A stretch of DNA of 64,000 bases from positions 78,638 through 142,637 of the forward strand of contig JAGORR010000001.1 of the NCBI GenBank assembly GCA_018062765.1, written 5' to 3'. The position numbers were made by a program, and so were the translations under genes. Below are positions 4,853 to 50,589 of the stretch, piece by piece (the first letter of the stretch is position 1; the number at the start of each line of letters is the position of its first letter). The DNA is from Minisyncoccota bacterium. GTDB lineage: Bacteria; Patescibacteriota; Minisyncoccia; Phycocordibacterales; Phycocordibacteraceae. The notes below the pieces were generated by a model, which was not told where the DNA came from, made no database searches, and was given only the letters and a program-made list of their open reading frames with translations.

Positions 4853-4860
4853 ACTAGAAG

Positions 4861-20546: not shown

Positions 20547-20652
20547 GATATGAAAAAGGAAAACCCAAAAAGTTTGTAAATCGGGAACAGGCCGAGCGGC
20601 CTCCCTCTCCCATGCTACCACTGAAGCACAAAGCCCCGTTTGGGGCCTGTGA

Positions 20653-21123: not shown

Positions 21124-21132
21124 TGGTACAAT
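21124..21132 (+). promoter_or_regulatory. extended -10 (TGgTACAAT) 7 nt upstream of recombinase ATG, possible leaderless mRNA
   Basis: TGGTACAAT at 21124-21132 and ATG at 21139. No good -35 and no SD. Confidence 0.35.
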
Positions 21133-21138
21133 TTTTTT

Positions 21139-22035: not shown

Positions 22036-22057
22036 CGGAGTGCGCTAGAATGCGCGC

Positions 22058-22852: not shown

Positions 22853-22873
22853 AGGACAAATGTCCTTTATCCC
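22846..22873. repeat. perfect 13-bp-arm palindrome GGGATAAAGGACA-aa-TGTCCTTTATCCC overlapping xth stop
   Basis: Read directly. It is the fused form of the GGGATAA and AGGACA half-motifs that recur up to 28508. Confidence 0.85.
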
Positions 22874-22879
22874 CACTAA

Positions 22880-22920
22880 TGTCCTTTACACTAAGTAACT
22901 ACGCCGTAAGATAAAGGACA
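22880..22920. repeat. two further TAAAGGACA copies in divergent orientation
   Basis: TGTCCTTTA at 22880-22888 and GATAAAGGACA at 22910-22920. Confidence 0.8.
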
Positions 22921-23223
22921 GAGCGAGACGGCGCACCGAGATTTGGTAGGCGCATTTGACCCGGGCTTCGAGATTTCTGTACGCCGTCTGGCACTAACCC
23001 AGATGTTCTTTACGGCTCTTTCCAAAACCTAGTGAAGCGCGAAGTTAGCGAGATCGGCTACGAACTTCGGGGCGTATCCCCGCATACTAAAGAGGCCCGT
23101 TTCCCGTGAAAAGCGCTGTAGTCGTACCTTCGAGACGAAGTCCAAAAATAAAGACCGCCACAGAGAGGCGCATCTATTGGGGTCCTATCACATGCCCCCT
23201 GCTCCTTTCCGGGACCCCGCCAA

Positions 23224-23252
23224 ACCGCCTTACCTAAGGCGGTCTTTTATTT
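23224..23252. terminator. intrinsic terminator next to cca stop
   Basis: ACCGCCTTA-cc-TAAGGCGGT followed by CTTTTATTT. Confidence 0.55.
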
Positions 23253-23269
23253 CACGCGAAACAGCTCCC

Positions 23270-24733: not shown

Positions 24734-24799
24734 AACAATATTCTACGGCATGACCTAGCGCGCTTCCTAAATGAATTATATGATTGTGTGTATAGAACT

Positions 24800-25462
24800 A
24801 TGAAAGAGAAAGTTCAGCATAAGAAATACGCGACTGATTTGCGACTAGCAGGGAGCACCTATTCGGAGATACTCGCGCAAGTCCCTGTTTCGCGTGGCAC
24901 ATTATCAGCGTGGCTTAGTGATGTTCCTCTACCGGAGAACGTGGTAAAGCACCTCTCCGCCAATCGGCGAGCGAGGGTCAGTCAGGCAAGAAGAAGGGAA
25001 GCGACGGTCCGGAAAGCGGCAGCGATAGTTCGCCGCGGATTCGCTGAAAAAGGTGCAAAAAAGGAATTCGAAAGACACTCGAAGGAACCCTTTTTCCTGG
25101 CCGGTCTCGGTCTTTATCTTGGTGGCGGGACCTTTGGGAAGGCATCCTTCTCGTACATGTCCGGGGAGGAGCGCCAGATAGCGCTAATGGTCCGCTGGGC
25201 TAAGGAATACCTTGCCCACGAGAGTCGTATAGCGCTCCGACTCTATCTGCCGCCCTCCATGGACCTCGGATCTGCCCGTGTGCACTGGTCCAAGGCCACC
25301 GGGCTCCCTGCAGCAGCCTTCAAGAAGGCGGTGATGACGAAGGAAAGGGCCAGAAAACCTAGTAATTACGCGGGTATTGCCCGATTGGAGCTTACGGGTG
25401 GCAGGGCAGCGCTTCGTGTGCGCGTGTGGCTGGATATGCTTGTTGTGCGCTATGCGGAATAA
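24800..25462 (+). CDS. HTH protein with degenerate LAGLIDADG-like domain
   Basis: N-terminal YSEILAQVPVSRGTLSAWL (HTH), then FFLAGLGLYLGGGTFGK ... VHWSKATGLPAAAFKK. Resembles a homing-endonuclease-like family I recall from Actinobacteria/CPR. Start set at ATG 24800. Confidence 0.55.
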   Translation: MKEKVQHKKYATDLRLAGSTYSEILAQVPVSRGTLSAWLSDVPLPENVVKHLSANRRARVSQARRREATVRKAAAIVRRGFAEKGAKKEFERHSKEPFFLAGLGLYLGGGTFGKASFSYMSGEERQIALMVRWAKEYLAHESRIALRLYLPPSMDLGSARVHWSKATGLPAAAFKKAVMTKERARKPSNYAGIARLELTGGRAALRVRVWLDMLVVRYAE

Positions 25463-25481
25463 AGCTAGTGTTTACCTCAGG

Positions 25482-25553
25482 CTCCGATAGTGAAATGGAT
25501 ATCACATCAGTCTTCGGAACTGACGTTCCAGGTTCGAATCCTGGTCGGAGCAC
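25482..25553 (+). tRNA. tRNA-Arg (anticodon TCG), no encoded CCA
   Basis: Hand fold: acceptor GCTCCGA/TCGGAGC, D GTGA/TCAC, anticodon stem TCAGT/ACTGA with loop CTTCGGA, T arm CCAGG-TTCGAAT-CCTGG, discriminator A. Confidence 0.9.
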
Positions 25554-25555
25554 AG

Positions 25556-25747
25556 AAAGCAGCAAACCCGAGCTTACGCTTGGGTTTGCTGCTTTCTGGC
25601 TCAAGGCCAGGATTCGAAAGACGGAGTCGGTATACAAGCGAGCGAAGCGAGGCTTGAGACGATGAAAGCTGCCGGGGGTCGCTTTCATGGGTCGCGGAAA
25701 TCCCGCGTAGAGGGATTATCCGTGACCGAATCCTGGTCGGAGCACAC
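25556..25747 (+). other. tRNA-Arg-trailing unit: 15-bp hairpin plus 5'-truncated tRNA-Arg copy with 120-nt T-loop
   Basis: Hairpin GAAAGCAGCAAACCC/GGGTTTGCTGCTTTC (25556-25597). CCAGG-ATTCGAAAG at 25608. Exact 20-nt repeat of the tRNA 3' end (25536-25555) at 25728-25747. Confidence 0.8.
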
Positions 25748-25793
25748 TAAGAATTGAAGAAAAGGCATAGCTATGGGAATATAGAGCCCGTAG

Positions 25794-25864
25794 CGGCTAT
25801 GGTTTAGTGGTAGAACGCGTCCTTGCCAAGGACGAGTCGGGAGTTCGATTCTCCCTAGCCGCAC
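25794..25864 (+). tRNA. tRNA-Gly (anticodon GCC), no encoded CCA
   Basis: Acceptor GCGGCTA/TAGCCGC, anticodon stem CGTCC/GGACG with loop TTGCCAA, T arm GGGAG-TTCGATT-CTCCC. Confidence 0.9.
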
Positions 25865-25865
25865 T

Positions 25866-25990
25866 AAGAAAAGCGAAGCTTTGCGTGTACAGACGAGGGA
25901 GGATCGAAGGCCGGAGCGCGGCGGCGCGAGGCGAGGTCGCGGCCATTTTCAGAAGAAAATGAGCTGTGACCGATTCTCCCTAGCCGCACC
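25866..25990 (+). other. tRNA-Gly-trailing unit: 5'-truncated tRNA-Gly copy with 74-nt T-loop
   Basis: GACGA-GGGAG-GATCGAAGG at 25893. Exact 19-nt repeat of the tRNA 3' end (25847-25865) at 25972-25990, here followed by CCA. Confidence 0.8.
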
Positions 25991-25996
25991 AGAGCG

Positions 25997-26028
25997 AAAA
26001 GCGCCCGGAAGGGCGCTTTTCGTTTATA
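25997..26028 (+). terminator. intrinsic terminator of the tRNA transcription unit
   Basis: GAAAAGCGCCC-ggaa-GGGCGCTTTTC followed by GTTTAT. Confidence 0.7.
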
Positions 26029-26085
26029 GACAATAGGGGATAACTACCTACCTCTCCCTTGAACGCATAATTTCTAGGCCATTTC

Positions 26086-26114
26086 TTGGTGTTGACTTCA
26101 TGAAATGGTATAAT
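26086..26114 (+). promoter_or_regulatory. sigma70-type promoter with extended -10
   Basis: TTGGTG, 17-nt spacer, TGgTATAAT (26106-26114). Confidence 0.5.
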
Positions 26115-26120
26115 CCTAGA

Positions 26121-26355
26121 GCCTCGCAAGGGGTGGCAGGTATGGTCAGGTATCGGGACGAAAGTCGTTGCGTAAGCACAGCTCTAGTGGTCGGTACTTG
26201 TAAGGTCGAAAGACCTCGAGTACCTGCCAGTGGAGCTGTTTTCGTGGGCCCGCGGAACCAGTTTGAGCCCTCCACGGGTTAGCGATGAACCTGCACCTCG
26301 AATTTCGCGGTGTCGCTGGTCGACAAGATACCAGCATCGTAATCTTGGTCAAAAC
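26121..26355 (+). ncRNA. candidate structured leader/ncRNA (family unknown)
   Basis: 8-bp closing helix GGCAGGTA (26135-42) / TACCTGCC (26221-28) enclosing two GAAA-tetraloop hairpins (GAC-GAAA-GTC, AGGTC-GAAA-GACCT). Further nested helices (GTGGA..GGGC..GCCC-TCCAC; AGCGA..TCGCT). No credible ORF. Confidence 0.3.
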
Positions 26356-26475
26356 ATGACTAAGACGATTACGAGGAGCGCGAAGACAGGTCGCTTCGTA
26401 CCGGCAAGGCAGGCGATCACTCGCCCCGCTACGACGGTACGGGAGACAATCTTCGTCCCTCGCAAAAAGAAGTAA
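26356..26475 (+). CDS. 39-aa basic protein (KTGRFV...TTV.E type)
   Basis: MTKTITRSAKTGRFVPARQAITRPATTVRETIFVPRKKK. Resembles small conserved hypothetical proteins I recall from actinobacterial mobile DNA. Below the track cutoff as a stand-alone ORF. Confidence 0.4.
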   Translation: MTKTITRSAKTGRFVPARQAITRPATTVRETIFVPRKKK

Positions 26476-26551
26476 GCCCCCTAGCTAAACGCTAGAGAGC
26501 TTGCTTCGTAAGGAAGCAAAAGCGCTCACAGCAGGTGTGGGTGCTTTTGCT

Positions 26552-26628
26552 TAAGGACATGGTACCACAGGTGTCCTTTAGACCACCAACCACACCGATA
26601 GGCAGGGGATAATCATGTAATTTATCCC
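26552..26628. promoter_or_regulatory. two palindromes upstream of the NYN-Zn gene (operator-like)
   Basis: TTAAGGACA-N12-TGTCCTTTA (26551-26580) and GGGGATAA-N9-TTATCCC (26605-26628). Confidence 0.45.
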
Positions 26629-26759
26629 TAGAAAGCATAATCGATTGAATAAAATCAAAGGATCTCAGGAATATTATCGGCTTATGCAAGGCACATTTTA
26701 TCGCTGTCCACACCTGCATTGTACGTTCACGGAATAAGGTGTAGCGTTGAAGTAAAGAT

Positions 26760-27371
26760 ATGAAGCGGTACGCATTTATAGATGTCGAAAATACGGCCAC
26801 GACAGCCGAAGATATGCTTGGCTTTGTCGTTGATTGGTCAAAAGTGGCTGATTTCCTCAAGAATGTGAAAAGTTGTACAGAAGTGTTCTACTACACGGCT
26901 ATAGAGACTGGTGATGCCCAGAAGGCGGCAGAGTTCGAGGCGATCGATAAAACTGCCTGCTGCGTTGTTAGGGCGAAACAAAAGATGCTCTATAAGCGTA
27001 AGGACAAGTATCTTTCTTTCACGTGCTCAAAGTGCGGGGAACCCGGCAATAAAAGCATTGACATGGGGTACAACGTCAAAGGTAACTGCGATGTTGAATT
27101 AACGGTGGATGCTCTCGAGCATGGAGAGAAAGATAACGAATTTTACATATTCACGGGCGACGGTGATTTCGAGTACCTAGCTATAAAGCTTATGGAGCGG
27201 GGCGTTAAGGTCGTGTTTGTTTCTCACGCAAAAGTGATTCAGAGGGCTGGTCAGCCCTATGGACGGTATTCAAAAAAGCTTAGAGATCTTGTTGCTGCCA
27301 ACCCGACCCACCTCTCTTTCCAAGAACTAGATAATTGGAAGAAGAAATTTGAGCGCGTAATTGTGCCGTAA
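26760..27371 (+). CDS. NYN/LabA-like domain protein with inserted CxxC zinc-ribbon-like segment
   Basis: YAFIDVENT ... FTGDGDFEYLAIKLMERG (NYN), with inserted FTCSKCGEPGNKSIDMGYNVKGNC. Confidence 0.7.
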   Translation: MKRYAFIDVENTATTAEDMLGFVVDWSKVADFLKNVKSCTEVFYYTAIETGDAQKAAEFEAIDKTACCVVRAKQKMLYKRKDKYLSFTCSKCGEPGNKSIDMGYNVKGNCDVELTVDALEHGEKDNEFYIFTGDGDFEYLAIKLMERGVKVVFVSHAKVIQRAGQPYGRYSKKLRDLVAANPTHLSFQELDNWKKKFERVIVP

Positions 27372-27562
27372 ATACGCCGTATAAATACGAAAACGCCGCG
27401 AAGCGCGGCGCCTTCTAAGGACTCCCTCAGTATACTCAGGACCCATGAGGTGTCAATTAAGGGTCAAGGGGTCTTTCTAATAACCTGTTGATAGCTGATT
27501 TAAGAAGAATTTAAGATAGTTTCAAGTATAATTTTCACAAATGGATCAACCCGAGTTTCTTT

Positions 27563-28450
27563 CTATACTTTCGAGAGCAATACGGTTCCGAGGAGCGCAG
27601 AAAACCGCTGACTGTCGCTGTGTCGGTTGTTCCAATGGAACGAATACGCATCTAGATACCCCTGAAGGTGTCGCTTCGACACCACCTTATACGTCCCCCG
27701 AAGAGAGCGCTTCACGTGCGCCCAATACGCCTCAATAGTGTTTATGTAGATTGGGCCTCGCGCCCATTCTTTCTTTGAGTGATTCACCATGTATCGCTCG
27801 TAGCCTATAGCTACATTGTCTAGGGTCTTAGTAGCGTCAGTCATGAGCGCGGTGCCTTCCTCCTCAACGTTTTCCCGAAGAAACCGGCCGTGGGTATCTG
27901 CGCCTATGTCGGGTACGACCTTGGTGCGTACCTCGCCGTTTCGCTGTACCGCGCCTATAACCGGGGACTTAGCCCTAATGTTCCTGCTCTGGTGCATATT
28001 GTCCTTCCCGCCGTCACCCTTGCCGCCCATATAGGTGCTATCCACCTCGACAACCCCCGACAGCTTCTTGGGAGTCTGTTTCCCGAGGGATTCGCGGATC
28101 AGTTTCAGCATTCGCCACGCCGTCTTATAGGTCACTTCAAGCTGTCGCTCCATCTCCTTAGCTGAAATGCCGCTCTTGGCGTTAGAAAAGACCCACAGGG
28201 CATGGAACCAGAGGGAAAGGGGAGTATCTGACTTATGGAAGATCGTGCCTGCTGTAGGGGCTATCTGGAACCTACACTTGGAGCATTGATACTGTTTCCG
28301 GCCTGAAATGCGCCTGTAGGTACCACCACAGGAGCACTCCCGGCTGTGGAGGGAATCGAAAATGAAGTCCAGACAGACCGCGTCGGTCGGGAAATCACGT
28401 TTTAGGGAAGATAGGCCGTATTTACTCATTATTCTCACTCTATCGGACAT
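27563..28450 (-). mobile_element. IS1595-family transposase gene (element ends not defined)
   Basis: N-terminal Zn ribbon CSCGGTYRRISGRKQYQCSKCRF and an ISXO2-like DDE region (VVEVDSTYMGG, LMTDATKTLD, NTIEAYWAHVKR). Terminal inverted repeats not found by eye. Confidence 0.75.
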
Positions 28451-28474
28451 GGATTATGTTGTCAAGGGATATCG

Positions 28475-28508
28475 GGGGATAACTAAGGGGACATGTGGAT
28501 AAAGGACA
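28475..28508. repeat. GGGGATAACTAAGGGGACATGTGGATAAAGGACA motif cluster
   Basis: Contains GGGGATAA, a TAAGGGGACA variant and GGATAAAGGACA. Lies between the transposase start and yraN. Confidence 0.7.
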
Positions 28509-28577
28509 GCGTCCAAGATGAACGGATTATGATGAGTCTTAAGAAAAGCTAGTAAATAAGCCGTTTTTCTAAACTCC

Positions 28578-28973
28578 ATGAATCTCGAGAAGGCCACAAA
28601 GAAGGAAATCGGTGATTATGGTGAAAGGGCCGTCGTCCGAGAGCTCGAGAGGAATGGCTACAGGCTAGTTGGTAGGAATATCGCACGAAAGACAGGAGAA
28701 ATAGACGTGCTAATGCGAAAGAGCGATACCCTCCACTTTATCGAAGTTAAGGCGCTCTCATGTGAGGAGTTGCCGGATCTTGAAGCGGTAAACGATCGCT
28801 ATGACCCCTCTGCAAACCTTCATGAGGCGAAGGTACGAAAAGTCGCCCGGACAGCTGAGTGGATAGTCGCAGAAAAGGAGTGGGAAGGGGATTGGCAGGT
28901 TGATGGCGCCCTAGTATGGCTCCGGCTGCGCGATGGAGTCGCCAAGGTCCTCCATCTGCCGCAAATCGTCTAG
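28578..28973 (+). CDS. yraN: YraN-family (UPF0102) endonuclease-like protein
   Basis: GDYGERAVVRELERNGYRLVGRN ... GEIDVLMRK ... FIEVKA. Confidence 0.8.
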   Translation: MNLEKATKKEIGDYGERAVVRELERNGYRLVGRNIARKTGEIDVLMRKSDTLHFIEVKALSCEELPDLEAVNDRYDPSANLHEAKVRKVARTAEWIVAEKEWEGDWQVDGALVWLRLRDGVAKVLHLPQIV

Positions 28974-29074
28974 CAATGCTAGGATGGCCCATATAGGACG
29001 TTGGCCTATGTGTATGGGCGGTGAGCTAGGGTCATTATGTGCCGGAGTAGCTTGGGTGGGTTAAATCATTTGGT

Positions 29075-29148
29075 CGGGCCGTCGTATACCGGTAGTACGC
29101 TTGGTTTGGGACCAAGATGACCGGGTTCGATTCCCGGCGGCCCGACCA
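29075..29148 (+). tRNA. tRNA-Pro (anticodon TGG) with encoded CCA
   Basis: Acceptor CGGGCCG/CGGCCCG, anticodon stem CTTGG/CCAAG with loop TTTGGGA, T arm CCGGG-TTCGATT-CCCGG, ACCA end. Flanked by a perfect 14-bp leader/trailer complement (29061-29074 / 29145-29158). Confidence 0.85.
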
Positions 29149-29191
29149 AATGATTTAACGGCTCTCTGGGAGAGAGCCAAGGTCCGGAGGA

Positions 29192-29324
29192 AAGATGACC
29201 GGGACGACCCCTTACAGGGGCGGTATACCTTTCGGATATTTTGCATCGCAAGCTCGCAAATTATCTCGAAAGGTCTTGCGAACGCTCCAAGCATTCGCGT
29301 TCTCACCCGGCGGCCCGACCAAAT
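29192..29324 (+). other. tRNA-Pro-trailing unit: 5'-truncated tRNA-Pro copy with 102-nt T-loop
   Basis: AAGATGACCGGG (tRNA 29114-29125) is repeated at 29192-29203. CCCGGCGGCCCGACCAAAT (29133-29151) is repeated exactly at 29306-29324. Confidence 0.8.
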
Positions 29325-29383
29325 TTTTCGTGATGCGCACTGAATCGATTCTCCGGGGGAGAACCGTATGACTGGGTTAATGC

Positions 29384-29411
29384 AAAAAAGATCCGCGAAC
29401 GGATCTTTTTT
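29384..29411. terminator. bidirectional intrinsic terminator
   Basis: AAAAAAGATCCG-cgaa-CGGATCTTTTTT. Confidence 0.75.
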
Positions 29412-29434
29412 GCAATTGTAATTCCAGCGGTCCC

Positions 29435-30484
29435 CTAATCACTCGTCGCTTCAATAAGTATCTCCCGCAACGCTTTCGCCCTCGCCGCAAACGCATCTGC
29501 AAGATTCGGAAGTGGCGCGCTTAGGAGGTATTGCGAAAGACTCATGCCAGCGTCGAGCTCGAAGTTCTTCCTGATATGACGAGGTGTGATGGCGCGCACT
29601 TGGCGAGATGAGAGATCTGCTTCCGCCGAGCTTGTGGTGATGAGTCCGACCATTTCCCCGGAAAGCGAAGCGACAGCACCCCCCGAAGAACCTTCCTGCG
29701 CCGTATCGCTTCCAGACACTGACAGCAAATCGATAGTATTCTCGCCAAACGTATAAACCTTCTCAATCTCTCCGCCATCAACAATGAGTGGTAATGCATT
29801 CTGGATGAGTTCGCTCCCAGCAAACTCAGCGCCGTACGCTGCGAGTACTACGGTGTCGCCTGTGCGTGCATCCGTATCAGCAAGTGGAAGTGAAGGAAAT
29901 GAGGAGGGAAGTGGTGTGCCAGAAATTGTTCCGGTGATGTACAGGAGCGCAAAATCACTCTCACCGGTCCCAGTTGGTGCTGCGTCTGAAAGAGTCGCTT
30001 GATTAGCGGTTATCCAGTGCGTCGATACGTACAGGGGATCTGCCGTGTATGTCGCAACAGCAGGACTTCCAACTCGTACAGAACAACGAATGCTATTTGG
30101 TTTCGGATAATCGCGCAGGATAAAGTACTGTCCGATGTGAGCGGCGGTAAGGATGACACCGCGCGAATCGATGAAGACGCCGCTTCCAGAAATTGATTTG
30201 AATGGACTACCGTCCGTCGTGCAGAGAATATTCACCGCAGCATTTCCGGCAAGTCGAACCGCAGCGTCCAATTTTCGCGTATCCAGAGGTGCGCCCGCGT
30301 CTGCGACTGCTGCGGGCTGCGGAGGAGCTTCGATCAGTGTTGCGCCAGGAAGTGTCGTAGTCGCGAGTGGCGTCGCTTCCTCTATGACGATAGTCGTTGG
30401 AGAGCGAAAACCTGTGGTTGCTATGGCGATAACAGCAAACGCAAGGAGGCCTGCGCCCGCGTAGGAGATCCAGTCACGCTTCAT
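29435..30484 (-). CDS. membrane-anchored trypsin-like serine protease
   Basis: N-terminal TM helix. Catalytic-triad contexts TAAHI, DFALL and GSSGGAV. Confidence 0.7.
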   Translation of the reverse strand: MKRDWISYAGAGLLAFAVIAIATTGFRSPTTIVIEEATPLATTTLPGATLIEAPPQPAAVADAGAPLDTRKLDAAVRLAGNAAVNILCTTDGSPFKSISGSGVFIDSRGVILTAAHIGQYFILRDYPKPNSIRCSVRVGSPAVATYTADPLYVSTHWITANQATLSDAAPTGTGESDFALLYITGTISGTPLPSSFPSLPLADTDARTGDTVVLAAYGAEFAGSELIQNALPLIVDGGEIEKVYTFGENTIDLLSVSGSDTAQEGSSGGAVASLSGEMVGLITTSSAEADLSSRQVRAITPRHIRKNFELDAGMSLSQYLLSAPLPNLADAFAARAKALREILIEATSD

Positions 30485-30485
30485 G

Positions 30486-30556
30486 TGCGGGATAGGAGAA
30501 TCGAACTCCTGCTAGCAGTTTGGAAAACTGCAGTTCTACCATTAAACTAATCCCGC
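30486..30556 (-). tRNA. tRNA-Gly (anticodon TCC), no encoded CCA
   Basis: Reverse complement folds as GCGGGAT..ATCCCGC, anticodon stem GCAGT/ACTGC with loop TTTCCAA, T arm AGGAG-TTCGATT-CTCCT. Confidence 0.9.
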
Positions 30557-30642
30557 GTTCTTCGCCGCTACGATACCATTTTGACGGCAACCGCGCATCG
30601 GTCCCGGTATCGAGCTGGTCCCCCGTGCGTTATGCTTTCATC

Positions 30643-39097: not shown

Positions 39098-39697
39098 TTA
39101 AGAGAAAACCTTGTCGACGATGCCGTACTTCTTCGACTCGTCCGCCGTCATGAAGAAGTCGCGCTCGACATCCTTCTCAATCTTCGCAAGAGGTTGCCCG
39201 GTGGCTTTAGAGAGAATCTTATTAAGGCGGTCACGGGTCGCAAGGATGTGACGCGCCGTAAGCTCGATGTCGGTCGCCTGACCCTCTGCGCCGCCTGAAG
39301 GCTGGTGAATCATCACCTCTGCGTTTGGGAGCGCGAAGCGTTTACCCTTCTCGCCGCCGGCGAGGAGCACTGCGGCGCCTGAAGCTGCGAGTCCGACCGC
39401 CACCGTCGAAACCTGCGGCTTCACATGGTTCATGGTGTCGAGCATCGCCAAGGTTGCCGTTACCGAGCCACCTGGAGAATTGATGTAAAGCGAAATATCC
39501 TTCTTCGGGTCTTCAGCCTCAAGGAATAGGAGCTGCGCAATGACGAGGTTCGCGACGTCGTCATGTATGGGGCCGCCGAGGAATACGATGCGCTCCCGGA
39601 GGAGGCGCGAGTAGATGTCGTAGGCGCGCTCGCCGAACTGCGACTTCTCGATAACCATCGGGACGAGCATGGATGCCTGCGGGGTTATGTGCTTCAT
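39098..39697 (-). CDS. clpP: ATP-dependent Clp protease proteolytic subunit
   Basis: [15 protein letters not shown] (active Ser) and MIHQPSGG (His). Confidence 0.9.
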
Positions 39698-39895: not shown

Positions 39896-40051
39896 CTAGA
39901 AAGTCTGGCTTTCTGCTGCAGGGGTCGGAAGAGGAGCCTTACGCTTTTCGATTCGTTCGCCCCAGACGTAGAAGGCACCGATGACGACGATGGCGAGGAT
40001 GAGAAAGATGGAGATGAGTGCACCGTACGACGCGTTCTTCTTTGGGGGCAT
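39896..40051 (-). CDS. possible 51-aa single-TM protein
   Basis: MPPKKNASYGALISIFLILAIVVIGAFYVWGE... from ATG 40051. The upstream part of the tracked ORF is heptamer-repeat DNA. Confidence 0.35.
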   Translation of the reverse strand: MPPKKNASYGALISIFLILAIVVIGAFYVWGERIEKRKAPLPTPAAESQTF

Positions 40052-40054
40052 ATG

Positions 40055-40089
40055 AATACAGGGTACAGCGTACAGGTTACAGCGTACAG
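40055..40089. repeat. 7-nt periodic tract
   Basis: AATACAG GGTACAG CGTACAG GTTACAG CGTACAG. Confidence 0.85.
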
Positions 40090-40095
40090 TGGAAA

Positions 40096-40124
40096 ACGAA
40101 CAAACGCCGCGATGCGACGTTTGT
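40096..40124 (-). terminator. ppa terminator hairpin
   Basis: GAACAAACG-N11-CGTTTGTTC followed by GTTTTCC on the minus strand. Confidence 0.6.
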
Positions 40125-40127
40125 TCC

Positions 40128-40155
40128 TGACAGCTAAAAGCTAGAAGCTGTAAGC
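40128..40155. repeat. 7-nt periodic tract
   Basis: TGACAGC TAAAAGC TAGAAGC TGTAAGC. Confidence 0.85.
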
Positions 40156-40673
40156 TATTTTGACGTGTCGTACATCTCGCGCGAGCGCAGGAATGCGGCT
40201 TCTGCGTCACTCTTGCCGCCGAACCCGTTTACCTCAACCACTTTGTTCTGAAGTTTCTTATAGGTGGAGTAGAAGTGCTCGATTTCCTTAAGCGTGTGCT
40301 TATTGATGTCGCCAAGGTCTTTCATTTCCGCAAAGCGCGGATCGCCCACAGGAACCGCAATGACCTTATCGTCTTTATCACCACTGTCGACCATATTGAG
40401 GAGCGCGATAGGTCGCGCACGTACCATGATGCCAGGGAGAAGGGGATGGGTCGTAAGTAGGATGACGTCGAGGGCGTCACCATCGTCCCAGAGGGTCTGC
40501 GGCACGAAGCCGTAGTCAAACGGGAAGTCCTGCGCCGTGTGCGCAACGCGATCGAGCGCGATGATGCCCGTCTCTTTGTCTATCTCATACTTATTCTTCG
40601 AGCCCTTGTTAATCTCGACGATGACGGTCATCTCGTCTTTGGTTCCCGGGTCAATGTCGTGAAGCAGGTTCAT
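40155..40673 (-). CDS. ppa: inorganic pyrophosphatase (family I)
   Basis: KYEIDKETGIIALDRV ... DGDALDVILL. Start at ATG 40673. Confidence 0.9.
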   Translation of the reverse strand: MNLLHDIDPGTKDEMTVIVEINKGSKNKYEIDKETGIIALDRVAHTAQDFPFDYGFVPQTLWDDGDALDVILLTTHPLLPGIMVRARPIALLNMVDSGDKDDKVIAVPVGDPRFAEMKDLGDINKHTLKEIEHFYSTYKKLQNKVVEVNGFGGKSDAEAAFLRSREMYDTSK

Positions 40674-40680
40674 ATAAGAG

Positions 40681-40715
40681 ATAGCGTATAGCTGACAGCG
40701 TGCGGCGTACAGGGG
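40681..40715. repeat. 7-nt periodic tract filling nusA-ppa spacer
   Basis: ATAGCGT ATAGCTG ACAGCGT GCGGCGT ACAGGGG. Confidence 0.85.
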
Positions 40716-40716
40716 A

Positions 40717-42141
40717 TTACTCGTCGCGGCTTTCTGCGACGTCAGAGGCCGACTCGTTTCCTTCGTCTGCGACGGTGGTCTCCTCCTCAGCAGCAAGAGT
40801 GGTGTGCTCCTTAGGTGCCTCGAGTGACTCCTCTGCGTCCGCGCTTTCAGCGCCGATGTCGGTCGCGTCTACAGGAGTTGCGGTCTCAACCATCGCTTCC
40901 GTCATCTCCTCTTTTCCGGCGTCGGCTGCCTCGTCGATAGAAGGCGCAGGAGCCGCTTCGGGTGCTACATTGGCTGCCTCAGCGCCGGCATCTGCGACTT
41001 CCGTACCGCCCGACGAGATGATGTCGATGTTCCACCCAGTGAGCTTTGCGGCAAGGCGTACGTTCTGCCCGCCGCGACCGATGGCAAGGGACTGCTGATC
41101 GTCGGAAACCGATACCTTCGCGCGCTTCTCTTCCTCGTTAAGCTCGATTTCAAGGACGGATGCGGGAGAGAGTGCTTCTTTGATGAACGCGGACTGGTCC
41201 TCGCTCCACTCGATGATGTCGATGCGCTCGCCGCCGAGTGCCGCCATGACGGTTGAAACGCGCACGCCGCGCTGACCGACGAGGGATCCGACAGGGTCGA
41301 CATGAGGGTCGACAGATGCGACTGCAATCTTCGTGCGGCTTCCAGGCTCGCGTGCGATGCTCTTCACTTCGATGGCGCCCGAAGCGAGTTCTGGTACTTC
41401 CATTTCAAACAACTGCACCAAAAAGCGTGGGTGGCTGCGCGAGAGGCGGAGGAATACGCCGCGGAAGCCCTCATCTACCGCGTAAAGATACGCGCGGATG
41501 CGCTCCCCGGGACGATACCGCTCACCAGGAATCTGCTCCTCATACGGGATGATGCCGGTTGCACGGCCGAGGTCGACGAATATCGCGCCGCGCTCCATGC
41601 GCTGCACGATTCCGGAAATTATCTCGCCCTTCTTGTGGCCGAACTCCTCAAGTATGGACATCTTCTCCGCTTCGCGGATTTTCTGGATAACGACCTGCTT
41701 TGCAGTTTGTGCGGCGATGCGGCCGAAATCGTCCTGGGGCTCAAGAGGGAAGATAATCTCCTCGCCCAAGGTTGCGGTGCGGCGGATACGCTTCGCGTCA
41801 TCAAGAAGCATGTGCTTCTCGGCGTTGTAGCGGGGGAGCTCGCCCTCAGGGACGACCTCCTCGCGCTCACGACCAAAATGGTGCTCAGGCTCGGGAGTAA
41901 ACTCCTCGCCTTCCTCGGGGAAACGCACCATCGTCTCATCGACGACAGACTTCACCTGCTCGAAGGAGACGGTGCCGGTGTCCATATCAACCTTGGCACG
42001 CACGACCTGGTCGCGCTTTCCGTACTCTTTCTTATATGCGGTGGCCATCGCGGTTTCGATAGCCTCAATCATCGTTTCCTTCGTGATACCGCGGTCTTCG
42101 AACTCTCCGAGCACTGAGTGAATAGTTTTGAGATCCAACAT
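40717..42141 (-). CDS. nusA: transcription termination/antitermination factor NusA with acidic tail
   Basis: N-terminal NusA domain, S1 (GEIISGIVQRMERGAIFVDLG), KH repeats and a ~90-aa Asp/Glu/Ala-rich C-terminus. Confidence 0.9.
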   Translation of the reverse strand: MLDLKTIHSVLGEFEDRGITKETMIEAIETAMATAYKKEYGKRDQVVRAKVDMDTGTVSFEQVKSVVDETMVRFPEEGEEFTPEPEHHFGREREEVVPEGELPRYNAEKHMLLDDAKRIRRTATLGEEIIFPLEPQDDFGRIAAQTAKQVVIQKIREAEKMSILEEFGHKKGEIISGIVQRMERGAIFVDLGRATGIIPYEEQIPGERYRPGERIRAYLYAVDEGFRGVFLRLSRSHPRFLVQLFEMEVPELASGAIEVKSIAREPGSRTKIAVASVDPHVDPVGSLVGQRGVRVSTVMAALGGERIDIIEWSEDQSAFIKEALSPASVLEIELNEEEKRAKVSVSDDQQSLAIGRGGQNVRLAAKLTGWNIDIISSGGTEVADAGAEAANVAPEAAPAPSIDEAADAGKEEMTEAMVETATPVDATDIGAESADAEESLEAPKEHTTLAAEEETTVADEGNESASDVAESRDE

Positions 42142-42283
42142 AGTCCTATATTTAGTTGTAGTCGCACATATTAAGTTTTCGCTTCTTCAGTATGTCCTAC
42201 CTGCGTGATTCCTAAAAAGAAAATCCGCCAAGCGGACATTCAGTACCCGTAACGTACCACGCTGAGCCTGTTGCGTCAATGAA

Positions 42284-42353: not shown

Positions 42354-43331
42354 TTAGGCGAATGCCCAGTCACCATTGATCGTGGTCGCTTCTGCAGCGA
42401 ACACCAAAGGCGGGGGCGGAACCCACTCGACGCCAGGAGCCAGATAGATGTGGCCGACGTTCGCCCCGTTCTCGATCGTCAACGACTTGGACGAGATTAC
42501 GAGGTCGTGTCCGACCATCGTGATTTCGCTGTTGTCGAGGCCGAGCGAGGTCAGGACAAGCGAGTCGTGGACGTTCGCATCGGAGAGCACGGTAGTGCCG
42601 TTGCCGAACCGGGCGTCGAAGACGTCCGAGCCCGAGCCGCCGTGCATGGTGTCGTTGCCGCCACCGCGCAGGACGTCGCGTCCGTCGCCGCCAACGAGGA
42701 AGTCGCCCACCCCGTCTTCGACACCGTTCGACTGGAAACCACGGACGTCGTCGTTGCCGTCGCCGCCGTGGACCGTGTCGGCTCCGTTGCCGCCGAACAG
42801 TGTGTCGTTGCCGTCCTCGCCGTAGAGCGAGTCGTCACCGTTGTTGCCGTTCAGCGTGTCGCTGTCAGCACCGCCCCAGGCGCGATCGCGCGCCGACGAA
42901 CCGCTGACCCAGTCGTTGCCGGCGCCGCCGAAAAACTGGTCGAGGCCGGTACCGCCGAACATCTTGTCGTGGCCGTCGCCGCCGATGAACATGTTGTCCC
43001 CGGTCGAGCCGCGAGCGTAGAGGTAGTCGTCGCCTTGTACGCCGAGCAGCCAGTTGTCGCCGCTCCCGTTGACCCTGACCTCGTCGTTGCCTTCGCCGCC
43101 GACCAGCTGGTCGTTCCCGGAGGCAGAGATCAGCTGGTCGTTCCCGGAGTGGCCCTCTAGGTGGTCGTCGCCCTGGGTGCCGATGAGGGTGTCGTTGCCG
43201 GCACCTGCAAGGATGGCGAGGCCGTGATCCGTAAACGCGCGGAAGTCCATGCGATTCGGGTCGTGGTCGCCCCACCTGGTGGTGGCGTCAGTGGCGAAGT
43301 AGGTCGGCATCACGGGTTCTGCACGGTTCAT
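42354..43331 (-). CDS. RTX (hemolysin-type Ca-binding) repeat protein
   Basis: 325 aa. About 20 tandem GGxGxD-type nonapeptides by eye (GGEGNDEV, GGDGHDKM, GGAGNDWV, GGNGADTV, GGDGNDDV...). No N-terminal signal peptide. Visibly GC-richer than its neighbours. Confidence 0.8.
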   Translation of the reverse strand: MNRAEPVMPTYFATDATTRWGDHDPNRMDFRAFTDHGLAILAGAGNDTLIGTQGDDHLEGHSGNDQLISASGNDQLVGGEGNDEVRVNGSGDNWLLGVQGDDYLYARGSTGDNMFIGGDGHDKMFGGTGLDQFFGGAGNDWVSGSSARDRAWGGADSDTLNGNNGDDSLYGEDGNDTLFGGNGADTVHGGDGNDDVRGFQSNGVEDGVGDFLVGGDGRDVLRGGGNDTMHGGSGSDVFDARFGNGTTVLSDANVHDSLVLTSLGLDNSEITMVGHDLVISSKSLTIENGANVGHIYLAPGVEWVPPPPLVFAAEATTINGDWAFA

Positions 43332-46678: not shown

Positions 46679-48391
46679 ATGCCGTTTGAAAATCGGGGGA
46701 TGACTTTAATCGACGTTCTCGTCGGTACTTCCGTCGCGGTCATCATTTTCCTCGGCATCTTCGTTATCCTTCAGGCATCCGCATCCATTACGGGCGCGTC
46801 TGCATCGAAGGCGACCGCATTGGCGCTCGCCAACGGGCGTATTGAGATGTTGCGCTCCTTACCATACGCATCCATAGGAACGGTGGGCGGCATTCCGTCA
46901 GGTGCCATCGCGCAGGAAGAGACCATTTATTCCGATCTGGTGCCGTACGAGGTCCGTACCTTCATCTCTTACTACGACGATGCGAAGGACGGCTCGGGCG
47001 CTGCAGACTCTAATGGCATCCAGGCGGACTACAAGCGGGCGAAGGTGACAGTTACCTACGAGACACAGAACGGGGAGCGGGAAGTAGCCGTCGTTTCGAC
47101 CTTTGCGCCGATTGGAATCGAGACGACTGCGGGTGGCGGCACGCTACGCGTCGTCGTTGTGGACGCTGACGGCGTAGCGGTTCCAGGAGCAGAAGTTGTT
47201 GTCGAAAATCCAAATACAACTCCCACAATCGACGTAACGACGTACACAGACTTCGCGGGGTACGCCTTATTCCCGGGTGCCGCGACCTCAACGGGGTACG
47301 AGGTGTCAGTCACAAAGGGCGGGTGGTCTACGGCGCGCACCTATAGTCAGGACGCAACCAACCAGAACCCGACACCGGGACATCTCACCATCGCTGGGGG
47401 GCAGACGACGACCGGCACGTTTGCGATAGATGAGCTTGCGGCCGTCCTCGTGCGTTCCTTTACACCGGTTGTGCCTGGCACATGGTCCGATGCATTTATA
47501 GATGCGTCGAATCTCGTGACGATGGTGGGTGTATCGGTAGGTGGAGGCGAGCTCACGCTCGCAACTGGCGCGGACGGGTATGAGGCGTCAGGTGCTGCCG
47601 TCGCGTCATCGGTAGCACCCACCTATCTTGTTGCGTGGCACGAAGCGTCATTTACTCCCGCAACTCCTGGCGGGACGACGCTTCTGGTGAAAGTTACCGA
47701 CGCTGCCGGTACCTTGGTGCCGGACGCCGCGCTCCCCGGGAACAGCAGTGGTTTCGCGGCATCACCAATAGACCTCTCCGCGCTCGCAACATCGACCTAT
47801 CCATCTCTTTCGCTACGTGCTGAGCTTTCAACCGCTGCCACTACGACAACGCCGACGCTTGCGGATTGGGGGCTGGCCTATAGTCGTGGTCCGATACCGT
47901 ATCCGTCTCTGGCGTTCTCGCTTACAGGCGCGAAAGCCATAGGTTCTACCGTAGGCGGCGCACCTATATATAAGACCGAACTCGATGAGACGACCGATTC
48001 TTCCGGAAGCATCGGCCTCGATCTTGAGTGGGACAGCTACACACTCTCGCTCTCAGGCCCCGTGATTATCGATACCTGTGCCGCGTTCCCACTTGAAGTG
48101 GCGCCTGGCGCGGGTATGACGGCGGACATTATCGTTGCGACTTCGACTGGGAATGCGCTCAAGGCGTATGCGAAATTTCTGTCGGGGAGCGCTGTGGCGA
48201 GTCCTACGTTCACTCTCTCGAGGAGCGGCTTTTCGCGCACGTTGCCTGGGAACGTGTGCGGATTTGCTTACTTTGGAGACCTCACGCCAGCTGCCGATTA
48301 CGCGCTTTCTGTGACTTCGACCTCTACGACCGAGTCGTTCACTGACATTTCTATTTCCGGTCTTTCAAGCTATGACGCGATTCTCGATTGA
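46679..48391 (+). CDS. giant pilin-like protein (class III signal-like N-terminus)
   Basis: NRG|MTLIDVLVGTSVAVIIFLGIF and a CarboxypepD_reg-like segment GTLRVVVVDADGVAVPGAEVVVENP; ~570 aa. Confidence 0.65.
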   Translation: MPFENRGMTLIDVLVGTSVAVIIFLGIFVILQASASITGASASKATALALANGRIEMLRSLPYASIGTVGGIPSGAIAQEETIYSDLVPYEVRTFISYYDDAKDGSGAADSNGIQADYKRAKVTVTYETQNGEREVAVVSTFAPIGIETTAGGGTLRVVVVDADGVAVPGAEVVVENPNTTPTIDVTTYTDFAGYALFPGAATSTGYEVSVTKGGWSTARTYSQDATNQNPTPGHLTIAGGQTTTGTFAIDELAAVLVRSFTPVVPGTWSDAFIDASNLVTMVGVSVGGGELTLATGADGYEASGAAVASSVAPTYLVAWHEASFTPATPGGTTLLVKVTDAAGTLVPDAALPGNSSGFAASPIDLSALATSTYPSLSLRAELSTAATTTTPTLADWGLAYSRGPIPYPSLAFSLTGAKAIGSTVGGAPIYKTELDETTDSSGSIGLDLEWDSYTLSLSGPVIIDTCAAFPLEVAPGAGMTADIIVATSTGNALKAYAKFLSGSAVASPTFTLSRSGFSRTLPGNVCGFAYFGDLTPAADYALSVTSTSTTESFTDISISGLSSYDAILD

Positions 48392-48437
48392 TATGGAAAG
48401 AGCAGCGAGCAGCGAAAAGTGTACAGCGACTAGGAAT

Positions 48438-49058
48438 ATGACCACCGCTTCTTCCGCGGCTATACGCTTTCGGGCCGGCTTTACGCTTATCGAGACGTTG
48501 ATGGTGATTGGTCTTACCGCCGTCGTGGGACTCGCGATTTCGAACATGATTTTGTTCACCTATCGCACGAACACCTACCTCTACCAGCAGAGCGCAGCGA
48601 CTGATAACGCGCGACGCGGCCTCGACCCGGCGCTGCAGAACCTACGCGAGGCGACCTACGCTGCTGATGGCTCGTATCCGCTGTCGACGGCAGCTACTTC
48701 GTCCGTAACTTTCTTCAGCGACGTCGATGTCGACGGATCGGTTGAGAAAATTCGTTACTATCTCTCAGGGACGACGTTCTATCGCACGATTACGAATCCG
48801 GCAGGTTCGCCCCCGTCATACGTGGGGCAGGCAGCCGCGACGTCGACTATCGCTTCCTACGTGAAGAATTTCTCCGCAAACGCGAGCGTGTTCCGCTATT
48901 ACGACAGCACCGGAACGGAGCTTGCAGCGCCCATTGATGTTGCTGAGGTGAGGAGTATCAGTATCTCGGTAATGGTCGACGTGGACCCAAACCGCACACC
49001 AACGACCTATTCGCTCACGGGCTCGGCGACATTCCGCAACCTGCGCGATACTGATTGA
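48438..49058 (+). CDS. pilin/pseudopilin-like protein
   Basis: Prepilin motif RAG|FTLIETLMVIGLTAVVGLAI. Start uncertain (ATG 48393 or 48438). Confidence 0.65.
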   Translation: MTTASSAAIRFRAGFTLIETLMVIGLTAVVGLAISNMILFTYRTNTYLYQQSAATDNARRGLDPALQNLREATYAADGSYPLSTAATSSVTFFSDVDVDGSVEKIRYYLSGTTFYRTITNPAGSPPSYVGQAAATSTIASYVKNFSANASVFRYYDSTGTELAAPIDVAEVRSISISVMVDVDPNRTPTTYSLTGSATFRNLRDTD

Positions 49059-49070
49059 TATGGAAAGGAA

Positions 49071-49155
49071 AGCGTTTAGCGTAGAGCGTAGAGCATGTAG
49101 GAAAGACGGACCGGCTTCTTCTATACGCTATACGCTATCAGCTAGACACTCTCTG
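49071..49155. repeat. two 7-nt periodic tracts of opposite polarity
   Basis: AGCGTTT AGCGTAG AGCGTAG AGCATGT (49071-49098) and CTATACG CTATACG CTATCAG CTAGACA CTCTCTG (49121-49155). Confidence 0.8.
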
Positions 49156-49170
49156 CAAGGCGGGTATCTC

Positions 49171-50589
49171 ATGCTCCTGTCGCTCGTCTTTGGCGGGATA
49201 TTCCTAGGACTCCTCGGAGCGCTAACGAGCTACGTTCTTCTTGAGAATCGGCTTCAGGACCAGAAGGACGCGCAAGGTCGTGCATTTGCGATAGCTGAAG
49301 CAGGGCTCGAGTACTATCGATGGTTCTTGGCGCACTATCCGGGAAACGTCACGAATGGAGTTTCAGGCGGCCCCACAACGTTTACGCTTCCGTACTATGA
49401 CCCGGAGGGCGAGCAGCTCGGAAACTACACGCTGACGCTGAATCAGAATTCCGCCTGTGGCGCCGTCTCCTCCGTAGATATCGAATCGGAGGGCGCTACG
49501 CTCGATATGCCACAGGTGACACAGACGGTATCGGCGCGCTACGCGCAGCCTTCGGTTGGGCGTTATTCCTACGTATTGAATGACAGCGTATGGGCCGGCG
49601 CGGACCGCATCATCCTGGGGCCCTATCACTCCAATGGTGGTATCCGTATGGACGGGACCGCAAACTCATCTGTGTCGAGCTCGGTTTCGACTTGGAACTG
49701 CACGAGTAGCTACGGCTGTAGCCCAACGCAGTCGGCTGCGCCAGGCGTTGTTGGCACAGGCCCCAATCAGAGTCTTTGGACGTATCCGGTGCCGCAGGTG
49801 GACTTTGCGGCCATAGCTGCGGATTTTGCCTCGCTCAAATCGACCGCGCAGGCGCAGGGTCTCTACTATCCTCGCTACAGTAATACGAACAATCCGAATT
49901 CCTCTGCGTACTGGCACGGATACCACCTCACATTTAACGCAAACGACACCGTTACGGTTCGGCGCGTGACCTCAACAACGGAACTCGAGGTCGAGCCAGT
50001 GAATCCGGCGGAGACCCTCGATACAGACCGCGCGCTGATAGCGAACGAAACCATGTATGAAACGAGGACGATACCCGCTTCATGCGGACTCATCTACGTG
50101 GAGGATCACGTATGGATAGATGGCACCATCCCGTCTGAAGTGACGGTCGTTGCCGCTAATACAGCGTCGGGGCTCTCACCAAACGCATACCTGCGCAACA
50201 ACATCGTGTATGAAAATACAGACGGTAGTTCTGGCCTCACACTTATTGCGGAGAACAACGTGCTGATTGCACCTAACGCGCCTGCTGCAATGACCCTGAA
50301 CGGCATCTTCATCGCACAGAACGGTGCGTTTGGTCGGAACCTCTACTACAACAATTCCCGGACAGCATGCCACTCAACCTATGAACCGAAAACATCTCTC
50401 ACCATCCTTGGCACCACGGTCTCGAACAAGCGCACCGGAACCAAGTGGACCGGCGTTTCCTGCTCGGGCGGATACGCGGGCTTCGGTACCCGTATCGACT
50501 CCTACGACGAGCAGATGGCCATAGATCCACCACCCTTCACTCCTATCGTTTCGACCGATTACGAGATTATGGATTGGCGTGAACGGTAG
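49171..50589 (+). CDS. PilX-like pilus-associated protein
   Basis: Hydrophobic N-terminus MLLSLVFGGIFLGLLGAL, then AFAIAEAGLEYYRWFL (PilX_N-type pattern). Start set downstream of the heptamer tracts. Confidence 0.55.
   Translation: MLLSLVFGGIFLGLLGALTSYVLLENRLQDQKDAQGRAFAIAEAGLEYYRWFLAHYPGNVTNGVSGGPTTFTLPYYDPEGEQLGNYTLTLNQNSACGAVSSVDIESEGATLDMPQVTQTVSARYAQPSVGRYSYVLNDSVWAGADRIILGPYHSNGGIRMDGTANSSVSSSVSTWNCTSSYGCSPTQSAAPGVVGTGPNQSLWTYPVPQVDFAAIAADFASLKSTAQAQGLYYPRYSNTNNPNSSAYWHGYHLTFNANDTVTVRRVTSTTELEVEPVNPAETLDTDRALIANETMYETRTIPASCGLIYVEDHVWIDGTIPSEVTVVAANTASGLSPNAYLRNNIVYENTDGSSGLTLIAENNVLIAPNAPAAMTLNGIFIAQNGAFGRNLYYNNSRTACHSTYEPKTSLTILGTTVSNKRTGTKWTGVSCSGGYAGFGTRIDSYDEQMAIDPPPFTPIVSTDYEIMDWRER

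Follow-up and report, generated by a model that had tools for sequence, protein, structure and literature searches.

A dispersed, lineage-specific family of degenerate heptanucleotide tandem arrays is found in the 64-kb stretch of DNA analysed here (hereafter the window, meaning the whole stretch), and three of its members lie around ppa, the gene that follows nusA. The family comprises 10-11 head-to-tail arrays of four to five units each (28-35 nt) in seven spacers, with the unit consensus YAGCKTA. A sequence-only reading of the window had described three period-7 tracts around ppa and further loci at 4861-4944, 20512-20546, 49071-49155 and 60741-60768; reading in register bears out all of them as a true 7-nt periodic family confined to spacers, including the third ppa tract in the 43-nt nusA-ppa spacer, and one more array, at 48403-48437, had been missed. 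The arrays are listed below, with their score in a position weight matrix (PWM) of the heptad for two of them.

40682-40716 (+): heptad array in the 43-nt nusA-ppa spacer (40674-40716), PWM score 24.9
40123-40157 (-): heptad array from the ppa stop codon (whose TAG is the first YAG) into the 5' foot of the terminator, PWM score 27.7
40059-40093 (+): heptad array in the spacer from the terminator to the ATG (40051) of a 51-aa open reading frame (ORF), period 14 with 94% matches
4861-4895 (+): heptad array upstream of the ATG (4852) of a VirB4/TraG-like gene, antisense reading
4913-4940 (-): heptad array just past the stop codon (4945-4947) of a TraC-like gene, sense reading
20517-20551 (+): AGCT-type heptad array adjoining the ATG (20511, - strand) of an NYN-domain gene, in a divergent spacer of 519 nt
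48403-48437 (+): heptad array filling the 46-nt spacer between two pilin-like genes, sense reading
49070-49104 (+): heptad array past the stop codon (49056-49058) of a pilin-like gene, sense reading
49117-49144 (-): heptad array paired convergently with 49070-49104 and 27 nt upstream of the ATG at 49171
60741-60768 (strand ambiguous): AGCT-type heptad array from the rpsL stop codon (TAG) to 13 nt before the rpsG ATG

The strand of 60741-60768 is ambiguous, with PWM scores of 19.2 on the forward and 19.9 on the reverse strand, and the ATG at 20550, beside the 20517-20551 array, opens an ORF of 9 codons only. Around ppa the units can be followed one by one. The array at 40682-40716 (+) reads TAGCGTA TAGCTGA CAGCGTG CGGCGTA CAGGGGA, with YAGC antisense to the genes, and the sense strand of the nusA-ppa spacer runs TGTACGC CGCACGC TGTCAGC TATACGC TATCTCT TAT-ATG. 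The array at 40123-40157 (-) reads TAGCTTA CAGCTTC TAGCTTT TAGCTGT CAGGAAC, with YAGC on the sense strand, and that at 40059-40093 (+) reads CAGGGTA CAGCGTA CAGGTTA CAGCGTA CAGTGGA, its sense strand being CTGTACG CTGTAAC CTGTACG CTGTACC CTGTATT CAT-ATG. Tandem Repeats Finder also detects the three tracts near ppa, with a 14-nt super-period at 40057-40089 (94% matches).

The periodicity claimed by the sequence-only reading withstands comparison with shuffled controls. A generic test that makes no use of annotation, in which four consecutive units with at least four invariant columns are required and 50 dinucleotide shuffles serve as control, found six period-7 segments in the window against 0.08 in the shuffles, and none at periods 4, 5, 8, 10, 11 and 13; the signals at periods 6, 9 and 12 are coding repeats. 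Intergenic autocorrelation is highest at lag 7 (z = +4.3), with lesser peaks (z = 2.1 each) at lags 14 and 21. Without the seven tract-bearing spacers, the excess at lags 7 and 14 is gone and that at lag 21 is smaller, and the periodicity is thus a property of discrete arrays and not of intergenic DNA generally. Single good heptads and doublets occur at chance level (26 doublets against 21 expected), whereas 10 runs of three to five units were observed where 0.28 would be expected. Array sizes are exactly 35 nt in seven cases and exactly 28 nt in four. Outside the arrays, single heptamers and hexamers stand at Markov expectation, which indicates that there is no genome-wide word of the kind of an uptake sequence.

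Unit structure, placement and orientation

Alignment of 42 heptads shows a conserved core between loose flanks. Position 1 is a pyrimidine, only about half of the units starting with T; position 2 is A in 41 of the 42 and position 3 is G in all of them; position 4 is C in 32 (30 of the 33 internal units), position 5 is G or T, position 6 is T in 26, and position 7 is weakly A. Positions 1, 5 and 7 are the loose ones, and since units differ from each other at about 2 of 7 positions the repeats are imperfect. The core proposed from the sequence alone, AGC(G/T)T, stands as far as its A and G are concerned, but its C is found in 32 of the 42 only, followed by K and then T. A barrier of stop codons in all three frames, built from a TAG every 7 nt, was considered and rejected on account of the share of units that start with T.

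All arrays lie inside the non-coding 12% of the window (the coding share is 88%), each 0-27 nt from a stop or start codon, and it was correctly noted before that the tracts abut start and stop codons and bracket the ppa terminator. Six of the seven tract-bearing spacers are between co-directional genes, and arrays occur in six of the 13 co-directional spacers of 38-112 nt and in none of the ten convergent spacers. The earlier statement that the tracts always stand between same-strand genes fails at one locus, the 20512 array, which lies in the 519-nt divergent spacer at the start of the NYN gene. The neighbours of the arrays include pilin-like and type IV secretion-like genes and also the housekeeping genes nusA, ppa, rpsL and rpsG.

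The direction of each array is tied to the gene end that it adjoins. The best unit of every array is the one next to the neighbouring gene and the last is a degenerate YAG-purine, and in every case YAGC runs away from that gene, sense past a stop codon and antisense before a start codon. Two arrays that share one spacer are therefore convergent, as in the pairs 4913-4940/4861-4895, 40123-40157/40059-40093 and 49070-49104/49117-49144, where the inverted arrays are 12-38 bp apart. The rule that YAGC reads away from the adjoining gene comes from these three pairs and four or five solo arrays, and is suggestive. At the level of the transcript, the sense-reading arrays 40123-40157, 4913-4940, 48403-48437 and 49070-49104 each hold at least three XAG triplets at 7-nt spacing, and the start-proximal arrays show the complement, GCUR, on the mRNA.

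Some junctions resemble each other beyond the heptad itself. The arrays upstream of ppa (40677-40711) and of the VirB4-like gene (4856-4890) are 35-mers with 83% identity, and their variant heptads come in the same order as far as the ATG, a likeness of sequence which implies either common descent or common constraint. The two can also be seen as one dispersed promoter-like cassette and not as two independent arrays. Separately, GATTGATATGGAAAG (stop codon included) stands at the end of two neighbouring pilin-like genes, at 48385-48399 and again at 49046-49060; a sense-reading heptad array follows either copy, and these two junctions look paralogous.

The arrays have a practical consequence for gene calls, since they yield false N-terminal extensions, as had been claimed from the sequence; the ORF at 40155-40796, for example, reads ...PLYAARCQLYAISY... 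They would also mark where the promoters of leaderless genes must lie.

The arrays in other assemblies and in relatives

The host of the window is a Patescibacterium of the Paceibacteria/Kaiserbacteria-like group whose genome measures roughly 1 Mb; its NusA matches 80 syntenic loci in metagenome-assembled genomes (MAGs) of the group. The readable part of this genome amounts to ~74 kb, namely the 64-kb window and 10 kb beyond its left end (L092). The genes around the three ppa arrays are the following.

40717-42141 (-): nusA
40155-40673 (-): ppa
39896-40051 (-): 51-aa membrane-protein ORF, with its ATG at 40051
39098-39697 (-): clpP

Five assemblies that contain the same DNA as the window, the NCBI MAG GCA_017991435.1 and four others, were compared. 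The arrays are identical wherever covered, and with at most one single-nucleotide polymorphism in 15.6 kb overall the assemblies, which come from several samples, show almost no divergence from which a change in unit number could be learnt. The slipped-strand variation in copy number suggested by the sequence-only reading was not seen among them. This bears on the proposal that the arrays are contingency loci, in which a change in unit number switches the expression of the neighbouring gene (phase variation). [quoted passage not shown]

Comparison with relatives reveals the same gene junctions without the arrays. The order nusA-ppa is kept in 68 of the 80 relatives, and the spacer between the two genes, 43 nt in the window, has a median of 19 nt in 58 relatives (at most 25 nt in 39 of the 58), where it is G-poor, free of a Shine-Dalgarno (SD) sequence and often has a TATACT box 8-11 nt before the ATG. 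Past ppa the relatives have a terminator, which is followed by TATACT at a distance of mostly 6-7 nt from the small ORF's ATG; TATACT is present in nearly all of their terminator-to-ATG spacers, the very spacer that is filled in the window by the 40059-40093 array. The closest relatives available, L086 and L087, have NusA proteins 86-87% identical to that of the window and nusA-ppa spacers of 20 and 9 nt, with no heptads. A search with the heptad PWM (score of at least 17) gave no match in 1.39 Mb from 82 relatives against 11 in the window; two loci, L088 and L089, do reach the threshold, both having been fetched with the motif pattern itself. Similarly, the generic test found eight period-7 segments in 1.37 Mb of the relatives, no more than at period 8. 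As judged from these searches the array family is restricted to this species-level lineage. Positional conservation in close relatives, to which the sequence-only reading had looked, is absent, which tells against a conserved function and leaves the observation of the arrays itself untouched.

A few relatives have heptad arrays of their own (L020 16850-16886, L022 7995-8025, L071 1678-1708 and L069 9617-9654), with the units ACAGnnn, CTAnnnC, ACTAnnn and CTAATTT; the YAG/CTR triplet recurs, the cases being few. Their sites are CTA-N4 before nusA (L022) and before ppa (L071), CAG-N4 between stop codon and terminator (L020), and also a position before a T2SSE start. A metagenome scan with the shared 21-mer GCACGCTGTCASCTRTACGCT returned two unrelated chance matches only and is uninformative on further copies.

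The junction past ppa offers a view of what preceded the array. Downstream of the orthologous terminator, L086 starts with CGTTTTCCCCTGTACG and ends with TACGCT-7 nt-ATG, where the window has CGTTTTCCACTGTACG ... TACCCT-8 nt-ATG. L086 has one copy each of CTGTACG and TACGCT, in matching positions past the terminator, and the seed CTGTACG and the box TACSCT are therefore older than the array. The terminator-to-ATG spacer is 41 nt long in the window and 40 nt in L086 (a hand count on the alignment), and because these lengths are about equal the 40059-40093 array replaced the sequence between seed and box and not simply lengthened it.

Promoter-like sequence and candidate roles

The promoter sequence of the clade resembles the core of the arrays. 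Nineteen starts of the window have TAnnnT 6-11 nt before the start codon, 15 of them at exactly 6 (for example 14157(-), 35863(-), 51149(+), 53756(+) and 55474(+)). About a third of the starts have TAnnnT 6-7 nt before the ATG, a mark of leaderless mRNAs, and relatives share this layout, with TATACT as the box. At these 19 starts G is found at -14 in 16 and GC at -14/-13 in nine, from which the local consensus G-C-T-A-n-n-n-T, an extended -10 box, follows. SD-like AGGAG occurs at only about 12 starts of the window, and an SD sequence is absent from at least five of the seven tract-bearing starts. GCTR, to which the array core is complementary, agrees with the upstream positions of the extended -10 box (G-14 C-13 T-12 A-11), and the sense units before starts, GCTATAC, GCTGTAC and GCTAGAC, resemble a truncated form of it. 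Moreover, the three TGTACGC-type arrays (40052-40097, 40674-40716 and 4853-4895) share the arrangement TGTACG - 17 nt - TAC(G/C)CT - 8 or 9 nt - ATG, the base at -14 in this TACGCT/TACCCT register not being G. Since the small ORF comes after a strong terminator, its promoter could lie only in the DNA of the 40059-40093 array. These sequence features give limited support to a promoter origin for the three TGTACGC-type arrays, and probably to a promoter role as well.

We propose that the arrays would have arisen recently, through a slipped-strand duplication of units of 7 and 14 nt that was seeded on motifs which the spacers already had, and that the seed would be the extended -10 core of the clade (GCTA), which every spacer of the clade would contain. 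Slippage on existing seeds is the probable origin of the family. The constant AGC/GCT core, the strict 7-nt register, the free flanks and the fixed number of four to five units point to a periodic protein-recognition site, in which one protein subunit or one contact would fall on each heptad. Recognition would be of the DNA duplex at gene junctions, which must hold the promoter of the following, largely leaderless gene; the three TGTACGC-type arrays would serve ppa, the small ORF and the VirB4-like gene as promoters, and the reader would be either the sigma subunit of RNA polymerase or a lineage-specific ribbon-helix-helix (RHH)/omega-type repressor. That slippage-born arrays have been kept as protein-recognition DNA at gene junctions, and are not neutral filler, is the explanation that we favour and hold tentatively. 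A stronger form of it, in which the arrays would be the cis half of a lineage-specific control of junctions, with an oligomeric protein binding one YAGC heptad per subunit, four to five units being needed, at perhaps a hundred junctions, and setting transcription initiation or read-through, appears to us unlikely.

There is a precedent for such recognition. Dimers of the RHH protein omega/ParB of plasmid pSM19035 bind contiguous 7-bp WATCACW units, one dimer to each, in arrays that overlap promoters, and function requires four units or more (PMC9499535). The contiguous 7-bp units, their minimum number of four and the occurrence of both direct and inverted arrangements are common to the two systems, whereas the motifs differ (WATCACW and YAGCKTA), the inverted units are contiguous on the plasmid and 12-38 bp apart here, and the omega/ParB arrays are plasmid-borne with their binding protein encoded alongside; the likeness is an analogy of mechanism and not one of membership.

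Several observations weigh against recognition at junctions by a DNA-binding protein. The conservation of the core may partly be an ascertainment bias, the tracts having been recognised by their core. A scan with the TTGACA/TATAAT sigma-70 consensus found no match in the tract regions, this genome offers no -35 consensus by which to judge TGTACG, and the promoter geometry fits only three of the 10-11 arrays, which, being mutually homologous, amount to hardly more than a single observation. Neither the stop-proximal arrays, which aim their -10-like core into the upstream gene, nor the AGCT-type arrays are accounted for by a promoter role, and recognition of the -10 element by sigma-70 does not require the invariant G3 and C4. 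The arrays are evolutionarily dispensable, the nearest relatives having the same junctions without them, and no array is present in the further 10 kb of the same genome to the left of the window, so their density is uneven. No RHH, Omega or HutP family was seen among the annotated proteins of the window, nor a HutP domain in the ~74 kb readable. Finally, studies of the analogous Xanthomonas repeats saw no regulatory role (PMC4692102).

Slippage could also have left a neutral by-product, that is, ordinary heptameric long SSRs, 7-nt units being reputedly favoured by DNA-polymerase slippage, that are tolerated only in spacers, 7 not being a multiple of 3, without any sequence-specific reader and with a common motif due to shared seeds such as -10 boxes and terminator feet. 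Heptamers are the commonest class of long SSRs in many bacterial genomes, and polymerase slippage has been proposed to account for them (Mrazek 2007, summarised in PMC4679880 and PMC4692102). The absence of arrays from the orthologous spacers of the closest relatives, the 14-nt super-periods, the single-copy seed in L086 and the identity of the array core with the extended -10 core of the clade all agree with a neutral history. Doublets, however, are not in excess; the excess is limited to arrays of three to five units, all of fixed size (28 or 35 nt), and this and the conserved core speak against slippage of a purely neutral kind. Invariant A and G beside variable positions is not what uniform decay or homogenisation of whole units would yield, the five assemblies show no difference in length, and the spacer lengths in the window and L086 point to replacement and not to simple expansion. 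A neutral by-product is in our judgement a somewhat unlikely possibility.

Recognition could instead take place on the mRNA, where the arrays would provide a platform for an RNA-binding protein of the HutP or TRAP kind (YAG every 7 nt) that modulates the terminator or read-through, or an unstructured, SD-free leader that aids initiation or re-initiation. HutP reads XAG-N4 three times, touching only A and G, beside the Bacillus hut terminator (PMC2425495). Here, too, XAG recurs every 7 nt next to a G+C-rich terminator stem, the stop-proximal arrays form YAG-N4 four to five times on the sense strand, and the ppa array enters the 5' foot of the terminator like HutP site I (PMC2425495). The SD-free tract-bearing starts, the co-directional genes around six of the seven spacers and the leader role proposed for the TAACTGA repeats of Beggiatoaceae (PMC4679880) are consistent with an element of the mRNA, as is the finding that the solo arrays fold no better than shuffles (z = +1.38, -0.17 and -0.05). 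HutP, though, needs a pair of sites in the same sense, each of three triplets, placed 12-17 nt from each other on either side of the stem, whereas at ppa the second array is inverted and presents GCUR on the transcript; unlike the HutP sites, the arrays also conserve the C after AG and have four to five units each. One RNA-binding specificity cannot read both the YAG of the stop-proximal arrays and the GCUR of the start-proximal ones, no HutP or TRAP homologue was seen in the ~74 kb readable, and relatives start ppa translation from 8-25-nt spacers without arrays. An element read on the mRNA is therefore, in our view, quite unlikely.

Folding of seven spacer segments leaves a single robust structure.

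40098-40126 (-): intrinsic terminator hairpin downstream of ppa, with a 13-bp stem, a 3-nt loop and a T-rich tail, the sole element in the centroid structure

The hairpin announced by the sequence-only reading exists, at these positions and not at 40096-40124; the 112-nt spacer past ppa that holds it folds with z = -4.4, and relatives have a terminator in the same place. The convergent pairs could in principle be the arms of long RNA or DNA stem-loops, comparable to repetitive extragenic palindromes or bacterial interspersed mosaic elements (REP/BIME), and act as terminators, mRNA stabilisers or RNase III sites. Three spacers do contain convergent pairs, which are common in Xanthomonas as well (PMC4692102), and 49056-49175 forms a long imperfect hairpin (-36.6 kcal/mol, z = -1.8). 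The segment 4850-4948, however, folds no better than shuffles (z = +0.65), the centroid of the ppa spacer keeps only the separate terminator, four arrays have no partner, and the complementarity of the arms within a locus (0.61, 0.61 and 0.71) is no higher than between loci (up to 0.83) and so is not locus-specific. On these fold scores and on the complementarity of the arms the structured-RNA or REP/BIME-like reading, which is very improbable, was rejected. Only four tRNAs reached the gathering threshold of Rfam in the window, and over 39990-40760 only chance microRNA hits were obtained at E <= 10.

Known heptameric repeats and genomic setting

The record of heptameric intergenic repeats goes back to 1990 for cyanobacteria, with Xanthomonas, Burkholderia and Beggiatoaceae following later; to our knowledge no function has been established for them. 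The present family is a new motif within this class of intergenic heptameric SSRs, which includes the short tandemly repeated repetitive (STRR) sequences of cyanobacteria, GGGAATC of Xanthomonas and TAACTGA of Beggiatoaceae: it has 7-nt head-to-tail units above chance, at dispersed loci, in non-coding DNA near ORF ends and in a narrow lineage, and its unit YAGCKTA differs from those described (CCCCAGT-type STRR, GGGAATC, TAACTGA). No report of such repeats in Patescibacteria was found in the searchable literature, in agreement with the sequence-only reading, whose comparison with STRR was also apt (PMC4692102, PMC4679880).

The closest match in architecture is with the Xanthomonas GGGAATC and Nostoc GGGGA(T/C)T repeats (Rehm et al. 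2015), which are degenerate (GGGANTN), modally of four units, ~90% intergenic and near ORF ends, often in convergent pairs in Xanthomonas, with neighbours that have no functional theme and with no function found (PMC4692102). Degenerate 7-nt units with a conserved core, about four to an array, an intergenic position near ORFs, convergent pairs and neighbours without a theme are all found here. Unlike those repeats, YAGCKTA has no runs of G, and the G-quadruplex explanation offered there cannot therefore apply; the Xanthomonas positions are largely common to two species, whereas the nearest available relatives of this Patescibacterium have none, and the present host is a Patescibacterium with a genome of only about 1 Mb. 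The TAACTGA repeats of marine Beggiatoaceae (MacGregor 2015) lie directly upstream of SD-less start codons, including those of ribosomal-protein operons (PMC4679880). They resemble the present arrays in being a species-specific heptamer (2-6 copies there), mostly intergenic, before SD-less starts and in ribosomal-protein operons, and in having neighbours without a functional theme; a binding protein was proposed for them and not found. TAACTGA, however, consists mostly of exact copies, its length distribution falls from a large number of doublets, and one orientation, towards the start codon, prevails, whereas the units here are degenerate, doublets are not enriched and the direction is set by the adjoining gene end. 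As far as can be told from their citation in PMC4692102, the STRR of Calothrix and Anabaena are likewise dispersed intergenic tandem heptanucleotides in one lineage, with different motifs and longer arrays, such as the 26-unit GGGGATT in Nostoc.

The class of heptameric intergenic repeats thus extends to Patescibacteria, with a motif that is unable to form G-quadruplexes. Four to five degenerate units, a conserved core, convergent pairs and a direction tied to the gene end are an architecture shared with the repeats of other phyla, and the same architecture with an unrelated motif makes a sequence-independent cause likelier than motif-specific chemistry, a candidate being the 7-nt register of a polymerase or a binding protein. 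The genome is small and has few regulators, so the search for a reader would be short. If the arrays do control gene junctions, finding their reader in this lineage, where G-quadruplexes are excluded, could explain heptameric repeats across bacteria.

The window has a G+C content of 56%, and its start is probably near the replication origin, since rnpA, yidC, dnaA and dnaN lie at L092 13589-16253, 2-5 kb to its left. A mobile or accessory-looking region at 20002-30600 contains two NYN-domain genes, a XerC/D-like integrase (20869-22035), an IS1595-family transposase (27563-28450) and four tRNA genes (Arg, Gly, Pro, Gly). The arrays were also considered as footprints of target-site duplication by this transposase, which was rejected, as no matching ends and no 7-bp duplications were seen. 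The 27- and 54-nt tandem repeats at 42750-42985, in a HemolysinCabind-type gene (42354-43331, -), are coding and not related to the heptads.

Position 61459 is the common end of two independent Logan contigs, L090 and L091, and may reflect either a break in coverage or a boundary that varies between strains. At L020 16700-16800, poly-G and then a run of N mark an assembly gap or artefact in a public MAG. Lastly, the nusA leader has a terminator-like hairpin with a T run at 42223-42237 (-), with counterparts at L022 7950-7975, L086 ~3155-3180 and L087 ~530-555; the hairpin reads GATGTCCGCG...CGGGCATTT in the relatives and may be an autoregulatory attenuator of nusA.

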